Below are positions 43,438-51,567 of a DNA stretch of 64,000 nucleotides, in pieces (within the stretch, counting starts at the first letter, position 1; every line of letters begins with the position of its first letter). The stretch is from positions 416,001-480,000 of the forward strand of contig OZ242005.1 in the NCBI GenBank assembly GCA_965204725.1. Direction: 5' to 3'. Under the pieces are notes generated by a model. It was not told the origin of the DNA and did not search any database. It saw only the letters and a list, made by a program, of their open reading frames with translations. Both the position numbers and the translations under genes were made by a program. This stretch comes from Candidatus Latescibacterota bacterium (lineage in GTDB: Bacteria; Latescibacterota; UBA2968; UBA8231).

Positions 43438-43519
43438 TCCGTTGGGGGTGGCCCGGTCGCGGGCCTGAGATCAAAACCCTTTGAACCTGAACTGGATCGT
43501 GCCAGCGTAGGGAAACGGA
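43438..43519 (+). ncRNA. TPP riboswitch
   Basis: GGGGTG..CTGAGA..ACCCTTTGAACCTGAACTGGAT..GCCAGCGTAGGGAA consensus; P1 TCCGTT/AACGGA; upstream of thiamine genes. Confidence 0.95.
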
Positions 43520-43540
43520 TGTCGTACGCACCGCGTACGC

Positions 43541-43573
43541 ACCGCTGGCCCATCCGGGGCGAGCGGTTTTTTT
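43541..43573 (+). terminator. Riboswitch expression-platform terminator
   Basis: ACCGCT...AGCGGT hairpin followed by a T run. Confidence 0.75.
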
Positions 43574-43649
43574 ATGCGCCCTCAACGGAATTTTCCGCAA
43601 GAGCGACCCCAAATCGCCCTTGCCCATGCGAAACGAGGGAGCATACCTA

Positions 43650-46001
43650 ATGAGAATTCCACTGCCGTCGGCCAGCTTGCTGGCCGGTTTATTGACGCTG
43701 GCGACGCTATCTTGGGCGCGGGCCGAAGAGGTGCCCGGCCAAGTGTTGGACGCGGCCACCGGGCACCCCTTGGCCGGGGCCAATGTGCAGGCCGGGAACC
43801 GAGCCACCACCACCGACGCCGAGGGCCGCTTCAAGGTGGAGGCGGCCCCGGGCGACTCCCTCGACATTTCCTTTATCGGCTACCAGAGCGTGCGGGTAGC
43901 GGCCATCGCGCCGCTGATCGTGGCCTTGGAGCGCCATATTTTGCAAGCACCCGAAGTGGTGGTGGAAGGCGGCCTAACGCGCCAGCGGCTCGACCGCTTG
44001 GCCGCCAGCGTCACGGTGGTCGAGGGCGACCGTTCCCAAGCCAGCGGGGCCGGGCACTTGCAGGACGCGACCCATGCTGTGCCCAATTTGAATTGGGCCG
44101 GTGGATCGTCCCGGCCGCGCTATTTCCAGATCCGCGGCATTGGCGAGCGCAGCCATTACGCCGGCGAAGGGCCGCCCAGTTTTTCAGTGGGATTCGTCCT
44201 GGACGATATCGACTTGAGCGGCATGGGCACGGCCGGTTTGCTCTTTGACCTCGATCAGGTCGAAGTCTTCAAAGGCCCCCAGTCAACCATTTTTGGCCCC
44301 AACGCCTTGGCCGGTCTAATCAATTTGCGCTCGGCCAACCCTCAGCCGGGGCTTGCCGGGATGGGTCGCGCCGAAGTGGGCAGCGATGGTTTAGGGCGGT
44401 TTTCCGGAGCGGTGAATGTGCCGGTAGGGACCGATCTAGCCCTGCGCGTGGGGTACGAGAACGGCCGCGCCAATGGCTTTCGCGCCAACGCCTTTCTCAA
44501 CGCCGACGATACCAATCACCGGCGCGAGCAGTTGCTGCGCGTCAAGCTAGGCTGGACGCCAGCGGCCGGCCCCGAGGTGTTGGGCACCTTCTTTTGGGCC
44601 GATATGGACAATGGGTACGACGCTTGGGCACCCGACAACAACGAGGGGCTGACCACCTATTCCGACAAGCCGGGCAAGGACCGCCAGCAGACGACCGGGG
44701 CCTCGCTCAAAAGCACTTGGGGGCTGGCCGGAAGCGACGCCGAATTGGTGGCGATTACCGCGTTTTCGCGCAGCGAACTGGAGCACAGCTTTGACGGCGA
44801 TTGGGGCAACGACGCGTACTGGCTGCAAGAACACGGCTTCGACCCAGAGGCCGAGGGATGGAGCTACGACTTTTTCGATCGCAACGTGCGCGATCGCACG
44901 GTTTTGAGCCAAGAGGCCCGGCTCTTGGTCGAGGAGCTGGTAGTGGGAGCCTATTGGAAGCGGCTCGAAGAGGAAGACCATGCAGCGGGCTATTTGTTCG
45001 GCGGCGACGCCACAGACCTGAACGGGCGCTACGAAATCGATAATTTGGCCTTTTACGGCCAGTACGGGCTGGTCTTGGGTGCAGGGTTGCGGCTCGAAGT
45101 CAATGCGCGGCTCGACCGCAACGATACGGCCTATAACGGGACGACGACGAACTACGGGGCCGATAGCACGCGCACCGCGTTTGCCGTCGATCAATGGCTG
45201 GGCGGTGGCAAAGCCTCCCTGAGTTACAACTGGCGTCCGGGCCAAACCCTGTACGCTTCGGCCTCGCGTGGCTACCGCTCGGGCGGGGTCAACCAGCACC
45301 CGTACTTGGCTGCGGAGAACCGCCCCTACGACCCCGAATACCTAGTCAACCTCGAACTCGGCTGGCGCGCCAGCGGGCCGCGTTATTCCACCAGTCTGAC
45401 CCTGTTCCACGCCCTGCGCTCGGCCCAGCAGGTCGAGTTGTCGAGCCAGCAGGACCCGGGCGACCCCAACAGCTTTTTCTACTTCACGGCCAATGCCGTC
45501 ACAGGCCGCAACAGCGGCTTGGAATGGGAGCAGACCTTCCGCCCTCTGCCCTCAGTTGAAGTCTTCGGGTCGCTGGGCTTGCTGACCACCCACATTGATA
45601 CGTACACCTTCCCCATCGCAGCAGGTGAGGAAGCGACCTTGGGCGACCGGGCCGCCGCCCACGCCCCCAACTACACCTTTAGCTTGGGCGGCGAATACCG
45701 CCATCGGTCGGGCTTGGAAGCGCGGCTGGCCCTGACCGGCATGGACCAATTCTTCTATTCTGATAGCCACGACCAAGTCTCCGAGCCGTACCAATTAGTC
45801 AACGCCCACCTCGCCTACGAGCGAGAAGCATGGTCCGTGCAGCTTTGGGGCCGCAACCTGCTCGACGAGCGCTATGGGGTGCGCGGCTTCTACTTTGGCT
45901 TGGAGCCGCCGGATTACGCCGATAAGCTGTACAAAACCTACGGCGACCCGCGCCAAGTCGGCGTGCGGCTGACGACGCGGTTCTCCTCCTTGGGCAACTG
46001 A
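43650..46001 (+). CDS. TonB-dependent receptor, probably for thiamine
   Basis: Signal peptide, N-terminal carboxypeptidase-regulatory-like domain, FQIRGIG, VEVFKGPQ, NLLDERY..GDPRQVG; follows TPP riboswitch. Confidence 0.92.
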   Translation: MRIPLPSASLLAGLLTLATLSWARAEEVPGQVLDAATGHPLAGANVQAGNRATTTDAEGRFKVEAAPGDSLDISFIGYQSVRVAAIAPLIVALERHILQAPEVVVEGGLTRQRLDRLAASVTVVEGDRSQASGAGHLQDATHAVPNLNWAGGSSRPRYFQIRGIGERSHYAGEGPPSFSVGFVLDDIDLSGMGTAGLLFDLDQVEVFKGPQSTIFGPNALAGLINLRSANPQPGLAGMGRAEVGSDGLGRFSGAVNVPVGTDLALRVGYENGRANGFRANAFLNADDTNHRREQLLRVKLGWTPAAGPEVLGTFFWADMDNGYDAWAPDNNEGLTTYSDKPGKDRQQTTGASLKSTWGLAGSDAELVAITAFSRSELEHSFDGDWGNDAYWLQEHGFDPEAEGWSYDFFDRNVRDRTVLSQEARLLVEELVVGAYWKRLEEEDHAAGYLFGGDATDLNGRYEIDNLAFYGQYGLVLGAGLRLEVNARLDRNDTAYNGTTTNYGADSTRTAFAVDQWLGGGKASLSYNWRPGQTLYASASRGYRSGGVNQHPYLAAENRPYDPEYLVNLELGWRASGPRYSTSLTLFHALRSAQQVELSSQQDPGDPNSFFYFTANAVTGRNSGLEWEQTFRPLPSVEVFGSLGLLTTHIDTYTFPIAAGEEATLGDRAAAHAPNYTFSLGGEYRHRSGLEARLALTGMDQFFYSDSHDQVSEPYQLVNAHLAYEREAWSVQLWGRNLLDERYGVRGFYFGLEPPDYADKLYKTYGDPRQVGVRLTTRFSSLGN

Positions 46002-46005
46002 AACC

Positions 46006-46659
46006 ATGCGCGGTCGGTCTGCTCTAATCGTCGGCAATGGGGAGCCGCCCAAGCGAGAATTATTCGCCGCTTGCGCCCAAGAAGCCGAGCTTATTCTGTG
46101 CGCCGATGGCGGGGCCAATACCGCCCGGCGCTATGGGTACGCGCCCGATTACACCGTCGGGGATCTCGACTCGATTACCCACCCGCTCGCCGCCGACCGC
46201 CTCGTCCTCGTCGATCCCTCCGGCCATCTGGGCACGGACGGCCAAAAGGTCCTCAACCACGCGGTCACCTTGGGCGTTACGCACGCCGTCCTCCTCGGTT
46301 TTACCGGGCGGCGCACCGATCACCTGCTGGGCAATTTGAGCCTGCTCAAGACCTTTGCTGACCGCCTCGCCTTGCGAATGGTTGACGACTACTGCGACAT
46401 CCGCCTCATCCATCGCGGCATCCGCTTTCGCGCTGCTATAGGCCAGAAAATTTCCCTGTGCCCACTCAACGGCGCGGCGACCGGCATCACCACCGAGGGG
46501 CTGAAATGGCCCTTGCAGTCCGAGAGCCTCATCCCAGGCGTCCGCGAAGGCATCTCCAACGAGGTGGTGGCTAGTCCGGTTGAAATTCGGGTGGAGGGCG
46601 GCGATCTGCTGTTGTGCGTACAGCGGGAGGAGGGTTGCGGCGCGATTATCTTGGAGTGA
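46006..46659 (+). CDS. thiN: Thiamine pyrophosphokinase
   Basis: CADGGAN, VGDLDS, TD, GRRTDHLLGN, GLKWPL, GISNE. Confidence 0.93.
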   Translation: MRGRSALIVGNGEPPKRELFAACAQEAELILCADGGANTARRYGYAPDYTVGDLDSITHPLAADRLVLVDPSGHLGTDGQKVLNHAVTLGVTHAVLLGFTGRRTDHLLGNLSLLKTFADRLALRMVDDYCDIRLIHRGIRFRAAIGQKISLCPLNGAATGITTEGLKWPLQSESLIPGVREGISNEVVASPVEIRVEGGDLLLCVQREEGCGAIILE

Positions 46660-46718
46660 TTATATTCGTAAAAGCATTAGGACAGATAGCGATGACCGAT
46701 ACATGCAAGAGCCGTAAA

Positions 46719-47549
46719 ATGACAGGGAGACATAAGCCGCTACCAGAGTTTGCAAGCCCACCCGTCGTCGAAGTCGCTGTCTCGGTGCGGTTTGACGCGC
46801 CGGTCCTCGATGGTCCACTGATCGCGCTTAGATGGGGGCAGGTTCGAGATCGGTTCCCACTGCGTGAAGAGGCTTCTCCCCTAACCTCAACAATCGAGAC
46901 GTTCGGGGGGCCACAAGAGCCTCGGATCGAAATTCAGTTTAGTGGTATTTCTCCTACCCAACGGCTTTTGATGCTGAGCAGTTCTAAAACGAAACTATTG
47001 CAGATCCAAAAAGATCTATTCGGGTACAGTTGGCGAAAGCTCCAACCACAACATGAGTATCCGCGCTATGAGAAAATACGGAACGACTTCGAGTGCGAAC
47101 TCGCCAACTTCCAAACTTTTCTCTCGGCAGAAAGGCTCGAACATCTATCCTCGGTCCAATGTGAAATAACCTACGTCAACCTCATCTTGCCCGAAAAAAA
47201 TGTCTGGAGCAACCATTCGGAGTTGGGAAAAGTGATTCCTTCGGCGGAATCCCGCCTCACCGAAGGCTTTCTGCCACCGCCCGAGCAGACGAGATACGTT
47301 TCTCAATATGTCATTTCCGGCGAGGATGATATTCCTCAAGGCAGACTATATGTAAGCGTCGAACCAACTTACCACATGCCGGACAAGACGCCGATGTACC
47401 TGATGAAACTCACATTTCGAGGGGATCCCCAAGGCGATGGCCCGGATGGTATCATCAAGGCTATGGACCTTGGGCATGAGTGGATAGTCCAAGGGTTTGC
47501 CACGCTAACTTCGAGTAAGATGCACCGCGTTTGGAGGAGGACGAATTGA
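46719..47549 (+). CDS. TIGR04255 family protein
   Basis: PPVVEVAVSVRF, LLQIQ..SW...YPRYE, YVNLI, F..LT C-terminal pattern; lower GC. Confidence 0.8.
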   Translation: MTGRHKPLPEFASPPVVEVAVSVRFDAPVLDGPLIALRWGQVRDRFPLREEASPLTSTIETFGGPQEPRIEIQFSGISPTQRLLMLSSSKTKLLQIQKDLFGYSWRKLQPQHEYPRYEKIRNDFECELANFQTFLSAERLEHLSSVQCEITYVNLILPEKNVWSNHSELGKVIPSAESRLTEGFLPPPEQTRYVSQYVISGEDDIPQGRLYVSVEPTYHMPDKTPMYLMKLTFRGDPQGDGPDGIIKAMDLGHEWIVQGFATLTSSKMHRVWRRTN

Positions 47550-48073
47550 CAATTATCGCACCTAGCCCCACCCCGGAGGTACGGGAATGGTCCTTCTCAG
47601 ACAGTGCTACTTTCGATGATTTTCTAGGGGCTCCCTCTTTAGTGCCTACGAGTGAAACAATCTCCCCGCCCACCATTGAAATGGTAAGTGTTGAGGTGCG
47701 GCATAGTAGGAAACAAGAACCACACGCGATGGAATGGCTCTATCCCACGCTTCGTGCAATGGCCGCTCTGCCGTGGTGGACGGACAATTGGGGTTCCGGT
47801 GCTACGCGTACTCAAATTAGGGCGATGGCCGGTATGTTGGAGATATTGGTTGCGATTCTCGATAGCCAAGCTCCGCCTCCCGCTGTCGTGCCCACTTGGA
47901 ATGGAGGAGTACAAGTTGAGTGGCATCGCAGTGGCATTGACCTTGAGATCGAAGTGGATCCAGCGGGAAATATAGAGTACTTCTTTAAGAGTCCTGACGA
48001 AGAATGCGAAGGGCGAAGCAACGGCGATTTTAGTCAGTTGTCTGAGTATGCTCGGGCAGTGATTGAACGCTAG
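47546..48073 (+). CDS. Conserved hypothetical protein, middle gene of the TIGR04255 module
   Basis: GGAGGAGG SD then TTG overlapping the upstream TGA; DNWGS..A, P.VVPT..GGVQVEW..LEIE. Confidence 0.72.
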   Translation: MTIIAPSPTPEVREWSFSDSATFDDFLGAPSLVPTSETISPPTIEMVSVEVRHSRKQEPHAMEWLYPTLRAMAALPWWTDNWGSGATRTQIRAMAGMLEILVAILDSQAPPPAVVPTWNGGVQVEWHRSGIDLEIEVDPAGNIEYFFKSPDEECEGRSNGDFSQLSEYARAVIER

Positions 48074-48094
48074 AAATCACTGCCCGAGTGAACG

Positions 48095-48469
48095 ATGGAA
48101 CTCGACGACGCCAGCATCAGCGACGATGAAGTCGTGCTCCGCCGCATCGCTGAGGATTTCGTTACTGACGATCAAAACCTCCAAAGGCTTCGGCCTTCAA
48201 CCCAAGCGTTCAAACAGGACGGCCCTGATGGACTCGTTTCCGTGTATCTGATTTCGGAGACCGAGCCAGCTACGGTTGCGGATGAGGGCCCAGAGAAATT
48301 CCTAGCCTCTATAAGAGTGGGTGTATTACGCGAGTTGGGATTAGGGGTAGTGCGCGATCCCTCGTCGGGTGGCCTTGGGCACTGCGTTATCACGGGCAGA
48401 AAGACTAAGGGAACGCTAAACCAGATCGTTCGCAAGGCCAAGTGGATCGACGGATACGCGCCGGCATAA
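48095..48469 (+). CDS. Small hypothetical protein, possible ADP-ribosyltransferase/RES-like fold
   Basis: 124 aa; VVLRRI, RPSTQAF, VSVY, GHCVITG. Confidence 0.6.
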   Translation: MELDDASISDDEVVLRRIAEDFVTDDQNLQRLRPSTQAFKQDGPDGLVSVYLISETEPATVADEGPEKFLASIRVGVLRELGLGVVRDPSSGGLGHCVITGRKTKGTLNQIVRKAKWIDGYAPA

Positions 48470-48564
48470 GCGAATTAGTGCATCCCGCCCCAGCTCCTGC
48501 TTTCCCCTCAACCCAAGCCAGCAAGAGCCTCATCCCGGGCGTACGCGACGGCATTTCCAACGAG

Positions 48565-49515
48565 TCAGGCTGAGCAGCGAGCACCCCCGAGGACGCAAAA
48601 TTGGGCGCAGTGCGGATGGTTGAGCTTGACCGGGTCCCAGGCTTCGGCTAGGGTCTGGCCCATCTCAAAGGCCGCGTCATAAGGCAGCAAGGTGCAGGCG
48701 AGCACGACCGGAGAATCCGCGCCCTTGCGCCGTACTACCATGCGCGACGAGGCGCACATGATGTCGTCGGGCGACCGGCCGAGGAGGGCCCAGCAGCCGG
48801 TGGTAATCTCGGGCACGTCAACCGAGGGGTCCATCTCTGGGAACAGCAGGAGTTGGCTGGGGTCGGTCGCGTCAATGCGGACGCCGAGCTCGGCGAAGAG
48901 CCGGGCGAAGCCAGCGCGCAGCTCGCCTTCTTCGCCGCCCCAGCGCGTGCGGCTGGCGACCGCTAGGCAAAAGCCGCAATCGGCGAGCCAGCGCAAGCCC
49001 TCAATCATCGGCGTCCAAGAGCGGTCGCCGCGCTCGGCCTCGTGCAGCACCGGATCGTAGTGGTCAATGGAGACGCGAATCGCCAGCCGGTCACCGTGCG
49101 CTTGGCGCAACCGCAGCAGGCCATCGGCGCACTTCATCATCGGCCGCATGGCGTTGGTCAGCACCAAGCTCTCAAAGCCTCGCTCCAGCACGGCCGCGAG
49201 CATGTCGAGCATCTCGGGATTCATAAAAGGCTCGCCGCCGGTGAAGCCAATCTGGCGAGTGCCCAGCCCGTTGCGCTCAATCTCGTCGAGGTACGCGGCG
49301 ACCTCCGCTGTCGTGAGGTACACCAAGCGGTCGTTGCGCGGGCTCGATTCGATGTAGCAGTTGGCACACGCTAGATTGCAGAGGGTGCCGGTGTTAAACC
49401 ACAAGGTTTCTAGCCGCGTCAACGCGACGCGAGCACGCTCCTCCCCGTCGGCGGTGACGTCCGGGTCTTGGAACTTGAGTGGGTCTAGGCCGGGCCGAGC
49501 TTGCACTTGCGTCAT
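48565..49515 (-). CDS. Radical SAM protein
   Basis: CNLACANC, FTGGEPF, C-terminal HPHCAQFC..RC. Confidence 0.9.
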   Translation of the reverse strand: MTQVQARPGLDPLKFQDPDVTADGEERARVALTRLETLWFNTGTLCNLACANCYIESSPRNDRLVYLTTAEVAAYLDEIERNGLGTRQIGFTGGEPFMNPEMLDMLAAVLERGFESLVLTNAMRPMMKCADGLLRLRQAHGDRLAIRVSIDHYDPVLHEAERGDRSWTPMIEGLRWLADCGFCLAVASRTRWGGEEGELRAGFARLFAELGVRIDATDPSQLLLFPEMDPSVDVPEITTGCWALLGRSPDDIMCASSRMVVRRKGADSPVVLACTLLPYDAAFEMGQTLAEAWDPVKLNHPHCAQFCVLGGARCSA

Positions 49516-49669
49516 GGTGTCTCCGGTCTGGGCTGGTCCCCAAGGGGACGGGGAGGCGTCGTGCGGCTGTACAAAGAGTCAATAGCTCAATAGACTGTCA
49601 AGGCGGGCGGCTCTGGCGAAATTGGGGTGGGATGAGTAGGTTGTCTGCTATCTAGAAAGGAGAACCACC

Positions 49670-50746
49670 ATGGAGAAGCACACCGTAGCGATCATCGGCC
49701 TCGGGCGCATGGGCAGCACCATCGACGACGAGGGACACGGCGACGTACCCTATTCGGTAGCGGCCGCGACTAGGGCGAGCGAGCGGCTCGAACTCGTGGC
49801 CGGCGCAGACCTCTTGCCGGACAAGCGCGCTGCGTTCCAAAGCCGCTGGGGCGCGGCCGTGTACGAGGACTTCCGCGACATGATCCACCGCGAAAAGCCC
49901 GATCTCGTCGCCATCTGCACAGCGGCCTGTTTGCCCAAGCCCGCCCGAGAAGCCCCGGACGCGCACTTCCGCGGCGACTCGCACGCCGATCTAGCAGTCG
50001 CTGTGGCCGATATGGGCGTACCGATGATATACCTCGAAAAGGCCATGGCCAGCTCAATGGAGCGCGCCGACGAAATCCGCGCGGCCGTACAGCGCAATAA
50101 TGCGCTCTTCAACACGGGCGTCCTGCGCCGCTTTGACAACCGCTACGAGGCGGTCAAGGACGCGGTCGCCGCAGGTCGGGTCGGCGAGGTCCGGGCCGTG
50201 ATTCACTACGCCAGTTCCAGCTTGATGCACGGGCACATCCACTCCATTGACACCGTATCCTATCTCATCGGCGACCCGGCGATTGCGGCCGTCCGCGGCG
50301 AGCTTTTGCCCCCCGGCTTGCAAGTCGAGGGCAATCACATTCCGTCCGATCCGTTGGCAACCTATCAACTGCGCTTTGCCAACGGCGTGGAGGCGTGGTC
50401 CATTCCAGCGGCCCCGTGGGAATTTGAGGTCATCGGCTCGGAGGGCGCGATTCGCTCGTGCAACAACGGGGCCGACGTTTTGCTGCGCCGGCCCGGCGTC
50501 CCCCAAGGGCGGCGCGTGTCGTGGGAGGAGGAGCTCGTAGAGCCTGTGACGCCGCGCAGTACGACCCAGTGCTGCTTAGAGGATTTGGTTGCGGCCCGCG
50601 AATCCGGCCAACCCACGCGCGGCCATATTGACGTGACCCACCACATCACAGAAGCCACCATCGCCGTCGCCGAGAGCCACCGCCAAGGCGGCGCTTGGGT
50701 CGAGTTGCCGCTGCCTTCCCGCGACCTATACATTTTTCACGTCTAG
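49670..50746 (+). CDS. Gfo/Idh/MocA oxidoreductase
   Basis: IIGLGRMG, LEKA, HSIDT. Confidence 0.87.
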   Translation: MEKHTVAIIGLGRMGSTIDDEGHGDVPYSVAAATRASERLELVAGADLLPDKRAAFQSRWGAAVYEDFRDMIHREKPDLVAICTAACLPKPAREAPDAHFRGDSHADLAVAVADMGVPMIYLEKAMASSMERADEIRAAVQRNNALFNTGVLRRFDNRYEAVKDAVAAGRVGEVRAVIHYASSSLMHGHIHSIDTVSYLIGDPAIAAVRGELLPPGLQVEGNHIPSDPLATYQLRFANGVEAWSIPAAPWEFEVIGSEGAIRSCNNGADVLLRRPGVPQGRRVSWEEELVEPVTPRSTTQCCLEDLVAARESGQPTRGHIDVTHHITEATIAVAESHRQGGAWVELPLPSRDLYIFHV

Positions 50747-50781
50747 GAGGCCCCTTAACACTTACCACGAAAAGGATATAC

Positions 50782-51567
50782 ATGTTAAAAGCAGGCATAT
50801 TTCTCGATATGGAAAATCTCAACCGCTGCGGCGGCTACGCCATCCGCTTTCGCCAGATCAAGGCCCTAGTGGAGGCGCAGCAGGCGGTTGTAGTGCGAGC
50901 CAACGCCTATATGGCCGTTGACCGCGAGCGCGAAGGTATGGACGCCGAGTACCGCCAAAAAAGGGAAACGTATCGCAATCGAGCGCGGCGGGAGGGCTAC
51001 CATCTAATTCTCAAGGAAGTGCGGCGCTATCTCACTTCGGAGGGCGAGACCGTCGTCAAGGCCGACGCCGACCTAGAGTTGGCTGTTGATGCCCTGTTGC
51101 AGTCGGAAAATCTGGACTACGTGCTGTTGGGCAGCGGCGACGGCGATTTCGTGCGCTTGGTGCGCGCCCTGCAAAACCGGGGCAAGCGGGTTGATCTGCT
51201 CTCTTTTATGAACACTAGCACCGAACTGCGCCAAGAGGTAGATTACCACTTTTCCGGGTACTTGGTGCCCGACATTTTGTTCTCGGACCGCGGCCCAAAC
51301 CACCGCCTGCGCGGCATCCTACACGCGGTCAACGAGGAGAAGGGCTACGGGTTTTTGACCGTGCAGACCGGCTTGGGCGTAGATACGATATGCGAGGATA
51401 TTTTTCTGCACATTACCGACCTGCGCACGGCCCGCGGCGGGGTGGTGTCCAACTCGGACTTTGCCCACTTGAGGATGCGCGGCGCGATCATTGAGTTTGA
51501 GGTAGAAAACGACAGTGACCGGAAAAAGGCCGTCAACGCCGTGGAGTTTCAGCCCGAACTGTTGTGA
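50782..51567 (+). CDS. NYN (LabA/DUF88) domain protein with C-terminal cold-shock-like domain
   Basis: FLDMEN, DLELAVD, GSGDGDF; KGYGFL..DIFLHI. Confidence 0.88.
   Translation: MLKAGIFLDMENLNRCGGYAIRFRQIKALVEAQQAVVVRANAYMAVDREREGMDAEYRQKRETYRNRARREGYHLILKEVRRYLTSEGETVVKADADLELAVDALLQSENLDYVLLGSGDGDFVRLVRALQNRGKRVDLLSFMNTSTELRQEVDYHFSGYLVPDILFSDRGPNHRLRGILHAVNEEKGYGFLTVQTGLGVDTICEDIFLHITDLRTARGGVVSNSDFAHLRMRGAIIEFEVENDSDRKKAVNAVEFQPELL

Follow-up and report, generated by a model that had tools for sequence, protein, structure and literature searches.

CmdTAC, a toxin-antitoxin-chaperone (TAC) defense system of Escherichia coli ECOR22, pairs an ADP-ribosyltransferase (ART) toxin with an antitoxin whose tail is disordered, and its SecB chaperone acts as the sensor of a capsid protein, according to the available part of its description (PMC11618068). 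PDC-M32 is a PADLOC candidate that, as far as the accessible part of the source goes, has been reported in Sinorhizobium prophages (PMC12429752). Here we compare with these systems a module of three genes (hereafter genes 1, 2 and 3) from a Candidatus Latescibacterota bacterium (assembly GCA_965204725.1, contig OZ242005.1, positions 416,001 to 480,000; this entire stretch of 64,000 nucleotides is referred to below as the window), the first of which encodes a protein of the TIGR04255 family. We propose, with a probability of about one half, that the module is a horizontally acquired toxin system of the toxin-antitoxin or abortive-infection kind, in which gene 3 would encode a NAD-dependent toxin, gene 2 its restraint, and gene 1 a component that sets the threshold for release.

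In both the module and CmdTAC, three genes encode an ART-fold effector, a partner protein that bears a long low-complexity extension, and another protein that might gate release; both are also mobile and sporadic. Judged against the available account of CmdTAC, CmdT has an H-Y-[EDQ] triad, in place of which Arg, Ser and His are found in gene 3; CmdC is homologous to SecB, whereas no match to SecB was obtained for gene 1, the best fold of which is another one; and the extension of CmdA is C-terminal and carries a ClpX tag, whereas that of gene 2 is N-terminal (residues 1–63), its C-terminus lying within the conserved domain. The gene order differs as well, and there is no sequence similarity in the PADLOC scan. 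The module follows the logic of CmdTAC; every one of its parts, however, is of another family, belongs to another clade or is placed differently, and the module is not a member of that system.

In PADLOC, which the initial annotation of the window had suggested as a check, no known defense system matches the module, and the only hit is the candidate PDC-M32, which, on sequence comparison, is the nearest relative. The PDC-M32 proteins comprise about 375 aa (A) and about 123–131 aa (B), the latter being the same size as the gene 3 product, and both PDC-M32 and the module are found on prophage or viral DNA. The C-terminal domain of gene 2 matches positions 265–366 of the 375 in PDC-M32A (E 1.2e-12), whereas nothing in gene 2 corresponds to the first ~260 positions of that protein, and TIGR04255 proteins do not match PDC-M32A. 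PDC-M32B is weakly matched by two distant relatives of gene 3 (E 1.5e-5 and 8e-4), whereas gene 3 of the window itself has no match.

Conservation, decay and mobility of the module

The three open reading frames (ORFs) lie on the same strand between thiN and a radical-SAM gene (Table 1). The stop codon of gene 1 and the TTG start codon of gene 2 overlap in TTGA, downstream of a Shine-Dalgarno-like sequence, and genes 2 and 3 are separated by 21 nt (48074–48094). The GC fraction is 0.46–0.54 over positions 46650–48449, compared with 0.60–0.68 at 43500–46649 upstream and 0.61–0.70 at 48450–50699 downstream (300-nt segments). On all these points, i.e., the tight coupling, the low GC content and the identity of the flanking genes, the initial annotation is borne out. 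The start of gene 2 is backed by comparison: the relatives in Dehalococcoidia have an ATG at the identical overlapping position and also begin with M-T-T-I. For gene 1, a start at ATG 46692 appears more likely than one at 46719 because the closest relatives are 285 aa long and have the same beginning, without the internal Met.

A genome scan by gene 3, with one genome per species, recovered 31 loci, 5 in Latescibacterota and 26 in Dehalococcoidia, so that the gene 3 family is present in two phyla. The conserved neighborhood that had been anticipated is found for part of the module: a gene 2 relative lies immediately 5' of gene 3 in all 31 loci, whereas gene 1 is present in only 12 (all 5 of Latescibacterota and 7 of Dehalococcoidia) and therefore seems to be an add-on to a two-gene core. 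The two-gene form occurs in varied chromosomal contexts, e.g., after trmD-thioesterase-like genes or after an alcohol-dehydrogenase-like gene.

A metagenome scan by gene 1 returned at least 301 relatives, the best 80 of which (34–51% identity, near-duplicates included) were used. Gene 2 follows gene 1 in 66 of the 68 loci that extend at least 450 nt further, and gene 3 is present in 52 of the 56 with at least 1050 nt; among the four misses, gene 3 is split over two frames in L071, L103 offers only 1072 nt of room, and L074 and L076 carry other genes. These pairing counts suggest that genes 2 and 3 are the core and that the subfamily of TIGR04255 represented by gene 1 is tightly tied to it. In L074 (4807–6181) and L076 (1687–2929), the places of genes 2 and 3 behind the gene 1 relatives are taken by other ORFs; the one in third place begins with Tyr-Arg-Arg, like gene 3. 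Comparison of the third ORF of L074 with the gene 3 profile and of its second ORF with the gene 2 profile gave no significant match (hhalign probabilities of 0.7% and 2.2%, respectively).

Five of the 31 genome loci have a disrupted gene 3, owing to frameshifts at three different positions (L010, L022 and L032) or to in-frame stop codons (L026 and L028); gene 2 is intact in all 31 loci and gene 1 in all 12 that have it. Such selective decay, which is what would be expected of a toxin, hints at this role for gene 3. Furthermore, the conserved adjacency of genes 2 and 3, the short gap between them and their sporadic and mobile occurrence correspond to the layout of type II toxin-antitoxin systems.

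In a sample of 18 genomes drawn from the same genus, 9 carry an ortholog of the radical-SAM gene; thiN directly adjoins this gene in 8 of them, and the remaining one has the three-gene module. The empty site of congener L117, the one that was aligned, runs collinear with the window as far as 46629, and collinearity resumes at 48563. The two copies of direct repeat D1 show 90% identity at a spacing of 2001, and the module-carrying relatives L003/L116, L010 and L022 retain a longer thiN remnant (residues ~169–216) beside the radical-SAM gene. From the empty site in congeners and the thiN repeat, it follows that the insert has the extent given in Table 1 and brought its own thiN end, with the old end left as a scar. 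No integrase was found inside the insert, genes 1–3 being its only ORFs. Campbell-type recombination via thiN homology is one possible mechanism of insertion, and the decay of a larger element is another. In congener G001 (L119:2631–2748), whose junction of thiN and the radical-SAM gene is empty, two short fragments resembling the thiN C-terminus lie past the start of the radical-SAM gene and may be the scar of a separate event.

In addition, the complete module is present on two contigs of IMG/VR that are predicted to be viral (L151:1884–3755 and L153:2064–3860, on contigs of 85.6 and 35.6 kb, respectively). Searches of viral contigs with gene 3 patterns found no relative; hidden Markov model searches of the loci fetched by gene 2 did find gene 3. 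In L153, the module is directly upstream of a 688-aa ORF. Altogether, these comparisons indicate that the module is horizontally acquired, accessory and mobile. The source genome is a metagenome-assembled genome (MAG) with 94% completeness and ~10% contamination, and the module sits in one contig among host genes that are syntenic in congeners.

Table 1. Features of the module and of its insertion site (positions within the window)
Feature	Position	Strand	Description
Gene 1	46692..47549	+	TIGR04255 family, 285 aa (276 aa with start 46719); stop TGA 47547-47549
Shine-Dalgarno-like sequence for gene 2, GGAGGAGGA	47533-47541	+	Within the end of gene 1, 4 nt before the gene 2 start
Gene 2	47546..48073	+	175 aa, TTG start 47546-47548; candidate neutralizer of gene 3
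Inverted repeat I4	48051..48088	+	Perfect 14 nt, 10-nt loop; across the gene 2 stop, its end 6 nt short of the gene 3 ATG
Gene 3	48095..48469	+	124 aa, divergent ART-fold protein, candidate NAD-dependent toxin
Inserted island	~46630..48523		~1.9 kb; holds genes 1-3, supplies the last ~10 codons of thiN
Direct repeat D1, left copy	46523..46563	+	41 nt, within the intact 3' part of thiN
Direct repeat D1, right copy	48524..48564	+	Decayed remnant of the original thiN 3' end, adjoining the radical-SAM gene
thiN	46006-46659		Thiamine diphosphokinase; TIGR01378, 131 bits vs cut-off 76.4
Radical-SAM gene	48565-49515	-	Convergent; PF04055

Fold and conserved residues of gene 3

The AlphaFold2 model of the gene 3 product, built from a 30-sequence alignment, is of high confidence (pLDDT 93.6, pTM 0.86) and predicts an ADP-ribosyltransferase-type NAD-binding fold. 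At the sequence level, the protein has 72 relatives in a large protein database, all of like size and none with a Pfam family; gene 3 itself shows no match in Pfam (E<=0.1), NCBIfam, PHROGs or PADLOC, and 30 relatives show none in Pfam at E<=1. Profile searches of PDB with the alignments of the three families of the module gave nothing meaningful either (best E 0.69, 0.31 and 0.25).

Foldseek searches against PDB produced weak matches, headed by AvrPphF ORF2 (E 5.6e-3) and KptA. A VIA search covered 48,161 cluster representatives; among its 50 best rows, 42 are ARTs, NAD glycohydrolases, Tpt1/KptA, DarT or RES-type toxins, as judged by title or common knowledge, with KptA (Z 7.4) and AvrPphF (Z 6.9) at the top. 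A second structural comparison aligned gene 3 to a KptA chain at Z 7.9, with a root mean square deviation (rmsd) of 2.7 Å over 87 residues; eight Tpt1/KptA entries are matched at Z 5.0–7.9, all through the C-terminal NAD lobe and at 11–13% identity. The case for the ART fold is made by the consistency of this match list, no single score being decisive. The predicted protein thus belongs, at the level of fold, to the ADP-ribosyltransferase superfamily, i.e., it has the split beta-sheet NAD-binding core common to ARTs, Tpt1 and RES. Accordingly, of the ART/RES-like character initially assigned to gene 3, the ART fold stands, whereas there is no RES or ART family in Pfam that matches, no R-S-E glutamate and no H-Y-E triad as in CmdT.

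The residues that are conserved in this fold were examined in an alignment of 72 sequences (30 close relatives and 42 from the metagenome loci, after truncated and two aberrant sequences were dropped). R16, F39 and H96 are invariant in all 72, S49 is present in 71, R33, V50 and G101 in 70, and S35 in 63; the pattern R..S.AF..SV..H that had been noticed in the single sequence is thereby recovered as conserved residues (R33, S35, F39, S49, V50 and H96). Y51 is conserved in the close set only and falls below the 80% threshold in the larger one. In the model, R16 is on the first strand, which carries Arg-Arg and no invariant His; S49 is on the strand 48–52; and H96 opens the strand 96–100 after a Gly-rich loop. 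According to the accessible part of a description of the superfamily (PMC8120803), canonical ARTs bear R-S-E or H-Y-E at three positions, and in cholera-toxin-type ARTs the Arg is on strand 1, the Ser (STS) on strand 2, and the catalytic Glu opens strand 5. By analogy, R16, S49 and H96 would occupy the three classical ART active-site positions. Given that there is no invariant acidic residue, gene 3 falls outside the R-S-E, H-Y-[EDQ] and H-H-h clades.

The assignment of gene 3 to each of the described groups was rejected on this basis. A cholera-toxin-type (R-S-E) ART would fit R16 and S49 but has Glu in the place of His96; a diphtheria-toxin-type (H-Y-[EDQ]) ART, CmdT included, does not fit the Arg-Arg of strand 1 and the missing catalytic acid. 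Tpt1/KptA is the best structural match of gene 3; the alignment covers only residues ~85–180 of the KptA chain, and gene 3 has no winged-helix N-lobe, no match to the Pfam family PTS_2-RNA or any other, and no invariant His on strand 1. Also lacking are two further features attributed to Tpt1/KptA in the available part of the source (PMC8120803), namely the H-H-h motif and the R-H-R-R tetrad.

Gene 3 resembles the small ART-fold toxins of toxin-antitoxin and effector-immunity pairs (DarT-DarG, RES-Xre, MbcT-MbcA, Tse2-Tsi2 and Rhs ART tips) in the fold class (Z 3.1–5.2), the small size and the adjacent cognate partner, and differs from them in that there is no sequence match, the invariant residues are not the same, and the partner is encoded upstream and has no helix-turn-helix (HTH) or macrodomain signature. 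RES toxins in particular have an Arg-Glu-Ser signature, and gene 3 was rejected as a member of this group given that it has no Pfam RES match and fold Z scores of only 3.5–4.6. DUF6098 was a weak lead from a protein atlas (score 0.92) that Pfam did not confirm; the other atlas clusters are unnamed. Gene 3, with only 124 residues and with His where the catalytic Glu is usual, would add a clade to the ADP-ribosyltransferase superfamily and bears on the question of how a minimal fold can carry out NAD-dependent chemistry.

Gene 2, gene 1 and the competing explanations

The gene 2 product consists of a conserved C-terminal domain of ~110 residues and a lineage-specific N-terminal extension. In residues 1–63, Ser, Thr and Pro make up 37%, against 18% in the remainder, in line with the S/T/P-rich N-terminus described initially. 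Among 50 diverse sequences of the domain, E125, W126 and E134 are invariant and T117, G120, G121, Q123, H127 and D132 nearly so. The domain family is large (2547 representative clusters at E<=1e-3, 287 at E<=1e-10) and has no Pfam model: searches with gene 2 gave no match in Pfam or NCBIfam, no HTH or ribbon-helix-helix (RHH) domain by Pfam and no solved relative by sequence, the library matches being limited to PDC-M32A and, weakly (E 0.084), PHROG 30544 (function not assigned).

The domain also occurs in other settings, including 9 IMG/VR contigs. In two of these (L150:1055–3564 and L152:2–3186), it is found alone, straight after ORFs of 643 and 853 aa, respectively, without genes 1 and 3; it possibly has a role in the phages themselves, in counter-defense or as a structural component. 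On a Hymenobacter plasmid (L113:959–3342), a protein with this domain is encoded after a DUF4209 gene, and on an Acetobacter plasmid (L114:2944–4249) before a gene annotated as SspB (ClpXP specificity factor).

We propose that the effector of the module would be gene 3, a minimal divergent ART-fold protein that most likely uses NAD+, either modifying a target or destroying NAD+. Gene 2 would be its cognate neutralizer, made just ahead of it from a shared transcript, with the C-terminal domain as the constant partner of gene 3 and the N-terminal extension varying by lineage. In this genome, the hairpin at the junction of genes 2 and 3 (inverted repeat I4; predicted RNA fold of 48040–48100, -30.6 kcal/mol) would cover the ribosome-binding region of gene 3 and tie its translation to that of gene 2. 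Since close relatives have it only in imperfect form and the loci of Dehalococcoidia lack it, this hairpin is best regarded as a local refinement; another strong hairpin is found at the same position in L007. Scans for promoters and terminators gave nothing above chance. Gene 1, translationally coupled to gene 2, would be an optional third component, i.e., a ligand-binding or enzymatic sensor or regulator that, by sensing a signal or modifying a partner, decides when gene 2 releases gene 3.

Several observations weigh against the toxin reading. With respect to the counts, the 80 metagenome loci include near-duplicates, related loci do not count as independent, and some of the five lesions in gene 3 could be assembly errors of MAGs, even though the longer genes should suffer such errors no less often. 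With respect to gene 3, the fold Z scores of 7–8 are middling, in a range that is common by the tool's own calibration, and the mapping of R16, S49 and H96 follows strand order and not a residue-level superposition. At the catalytic position, where His96 stands, the 72 sequences have no invariant Glu, Asp or Gln, and canonical ARTs without this glutamate have several hundred-fold lower activity, as stated in the available part of PMC8120803. Moreover, gene 2 (isoelectric point, pI, 4.5) and gene 3 (pI 4.8, family median 5.4) are both acidic, which is unusual for a tight toxin-antitoxin pair or for a toxin that acts on nucleic acid. Finally, no sequence family, motif or solved relative gives gene 2 a function, and its domain family is far larger than that of gene 3 and found beside other genes, so that the domain may have a function of its own.

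The gene 1 product matches TIGR04255 at 65.3 bits (cut-off 30; model positions 2–251 of 252; 64.7 bits in the whole-genome search), and this is the sole match in NCBIfam, with no Pfam family at E<=0.1. The model (pLDDT 92.5, 45 sequences) shows two beta-alpha-beta(3-4)-alpha halves that form one antiparallel sheet with long helices behind; hhalign detected no internal sequence repeat between the halves. The Foldseek matches in PDB are an AdoMetDC/prozyme heterodimer (4.7e-5), many TBPs (8e-5 to 1e-3), RepDE and McsB, whereas the wide VIA search ranks arginine and taurocyamine kinases first (Z 7.7), ahead of McsB (6.9) and TBP (5.7). In the second structural comparison, all 28 chains at Z>=8 are phosphagen kinases, with creatine kinase as the best match (Z 9.1, rmsd 4.0 Å over 182 residues; McsB 7.6). 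Residues 7–271 align as a single unit to folds of the kinase and TBP types. Gene 1 thus has in common with phosphagen kinases, McsB and TBP pseudo-dimers the two-repeat antiparallel sheet with long helices; it differs from the kinases in that the N-terminal helical domain and a Pfam ATP-guanidino kinase match are both missing. Membership in the ATP:guanidino phosphotransferase family was rejected: with no kinase family matching by sequence and an identity of 5–9%, we claim only a fold class. The polar residues conserved on the strands (E18, Q95, Q97, E149, R209, T232 and R234) suggest a ligand-binding or active site on the sheet.

These features leave some room for an enzymatic arrangement, which we consider unlikely: gene 2 could be an enzyme that undoes or forestalls the reaction of gene 3, in the way DarG counters DarT, or gene 1 could be a kinase-like modifier of gene 2 or gene 3. 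The invariant and nearly invariant Glu, Trp, His, Asp and Gln residues of the gene 2 domain (E125, W126, E134, H127, D132 and Q123), the great size of its family and its presence in other contexts would fit the former version; the similarity of gene 1 to the catalytic domains of phosphagen kinases and the McsB arginine kinase over ~180–197 residues, together with its conserved polar strand residues, would fit the latter. Yet neither protein matches any hydrolase or kinase family by sequence, and guanidino kinases have several phosphate-binding arginines, which are not evident among the invariant residues of gene 1.

In a toxin-antitoxin-chaperone system, TIGR04255 would shield the disordered extension of gene 2 from proteolysis and let go when a phage protein competes for it, like CmdC. 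The 63-residue S/T/P-rich extension and the translational coupling of genes 1 and 2 are compatible with this scheme, the logic of which is established for CmdTAC in the available account (PMC11618068), and in the genome loci the extension aligns to that of the window only where gene 1 is present (query residues 1–174, vs ~34–64 onward elsewhere). However, the SecB-like chaperone that the initial annotation had considered for TIGR04255 did not emerge from the searches: sequence comparison gave no match of gene 1 to SecB, the fold matches listed do not include SecB (an absence from a list that does not exclude the fold), and the full length of gene 1 aligns to kinase- and TBP-type folds. The extension is N-terminal, not a C-terminal ChAD that ends in a ClpX tag, and many loci without gene 1 also carry long extensions, so that the extension is not simply a docking element for gene 1. 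Nor is any motif common to all gene 1-linked extensions: D-x-[SA]-T-aromatic is present in 1 of 62 metagenome sequences. A post hoc motif, [DE]-T-x-S, found in 6 of 11 genome loci with gene 1, in none of 15 without it and in 12 of 32 metagenome loci (many were skipped), was set aside as too weak. A complex prediction for genes 2, 3 and 1, with gene 1 as partner (ipSAE 0.06 and 0.02 vs a mark of 0.32), was made without controls and is neutral on binding. On balance, we regard a chaperone role of gene 1 as improbable.

The TBP-type matches raise the further scenario of an omega-epsilon-zeta-like operon, in which gene 1 would bind DNA through a TBP-like saddle and autoregulate the operon, gene 2 would be an antitoxin that lacks a DNA-binding domain, and gene 3 would be the toxin. 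The order of regulator, antitoxin and toxin fits, as does the lack of an HTH or RHH domain in gene 2, and besides the TBPs in PDB, the named best rows of the viral library BFVD are mostly TBP/TFIID of giant viruses and VETF-like proteins (2.5e-7 for the best row overall). A TBP-like saddle is disfavored, however, by the acidity of the gene 1 family (median pI 5.58 in 45 aligned sequences); TM-scores to TBP are 0.26–0.44 with rmsd >10 Å, the catalytic domains of kinases align better, and the residues conserved on the strands, being Glu, Gln and Arg, do not make a basic or aromatic DNA face. This scenario is, accordingly, quite improbable.

A role outside conflict, with gene 3 as a Tpt1-like NAD-dependent enzyme of nucleic acid end processing or repair and genes 1 and 2 as substrate-handling partners, is very improbable: although the NAD lobe of Tpt1/KptA is the solved structure nearest in fold, and Tpt1 also ADP-ribosylates 5'-phosphate ends in vitro according to the accessible part of PMC8120803, gene 3 has neither the N-terminal RNA-binding lobe nor the H-H-h motif and decays selectively, the module is sporadic, with an empty site in 8 of 9 congeners, and is also carried by viral contigs, and a PIN toxin closes a sister TIGR04255 cassette.

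Other TIGR04255 loci and neighboring genes

TIGR04255 is present in 21 of 301 sampled genomes of Dehalococcoidia and in none of 14 control genomes, which agrees with the sporadic distribution attributed to the family. Only two of these loci in Dehalococcoidia are of the gene 1-2-3 type. We examined 20 full-length loci (among L125–L148; e.g., L136:2207–3129), leaving out four fragmentary matches; all 19 that have at least 900 nt downstream encode, after TIGR04255, two further co-directional ORFs of at least 100 aa, each of which starts no more than 80 nt from the previous stop. By the same test, including this 80-nt threshold, such ORFs were found in 14 of 57 cases on the antisense strand and in 2 of 95 shuffled sequences.

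The third ORF of L136 encodes a PIN domain (41.5 bits vs a cut-off of 23.6), that of L128 shows a weak PADLOC match to HEPN (E 0.0057), and when a broad profile of gene 3 was used, the next-best matches, at E values of 3.5e-4, 0.066 and 0.07, were three such ORFs (in L138, L140 and L133). The remaining downstream ORFs of the TIGR04255 loci matched no family in the profile scans. As a lead, these cassettes point to a putative common design, in which TIGR04255 is followed by a middle gene and then by a variable toxin.

A wider generalization is, at present, doubtful. Under this hypothesis, TIGR04255 would be the common sensor or regulator subunit, with a sheet fold like that of guanidino kinases and TBP, of a widespread and hitherto unrecognized class of three-gene immune cassettes; the gene 2 domain family, with its ~2,500 clusters, would serve as a general sensor-effector adaptor; and the toxins (the Arg-Ser-His ART clade, PIN and possibly HEPN) would be interchangeable, the cassettes moving between phyla and on prophages.

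TIGR04255 is used by NCBI to name proteins; a literature search found it in none of the papers covered, and no function for it came up in the analysis. In the locus described here and in its relatives, the family leads compact cassettes of three genes, the last of which encodes a toxin-type protein; this gives it a first functional context and a testable hypothesis. If the module does defend against phages, it would be a tripartite system that follows a TAC-like logic with unrelated parts.

DNA nearly identical to window positions 46600–48600 is present in runs from several studies that are labeled as sponge or marine metagenomes, with no RNA run listed. Beyond the radical-SAM gene, the window encodes a GFO/IDH/MocA oxidoreductase (49670–50746), which precedes an ORF (50695–51567) with a NYN ribonuclease domain (PF01936, E 1.7e-21) and a weak cold-shock match (21.6 bits, below the cut-off).

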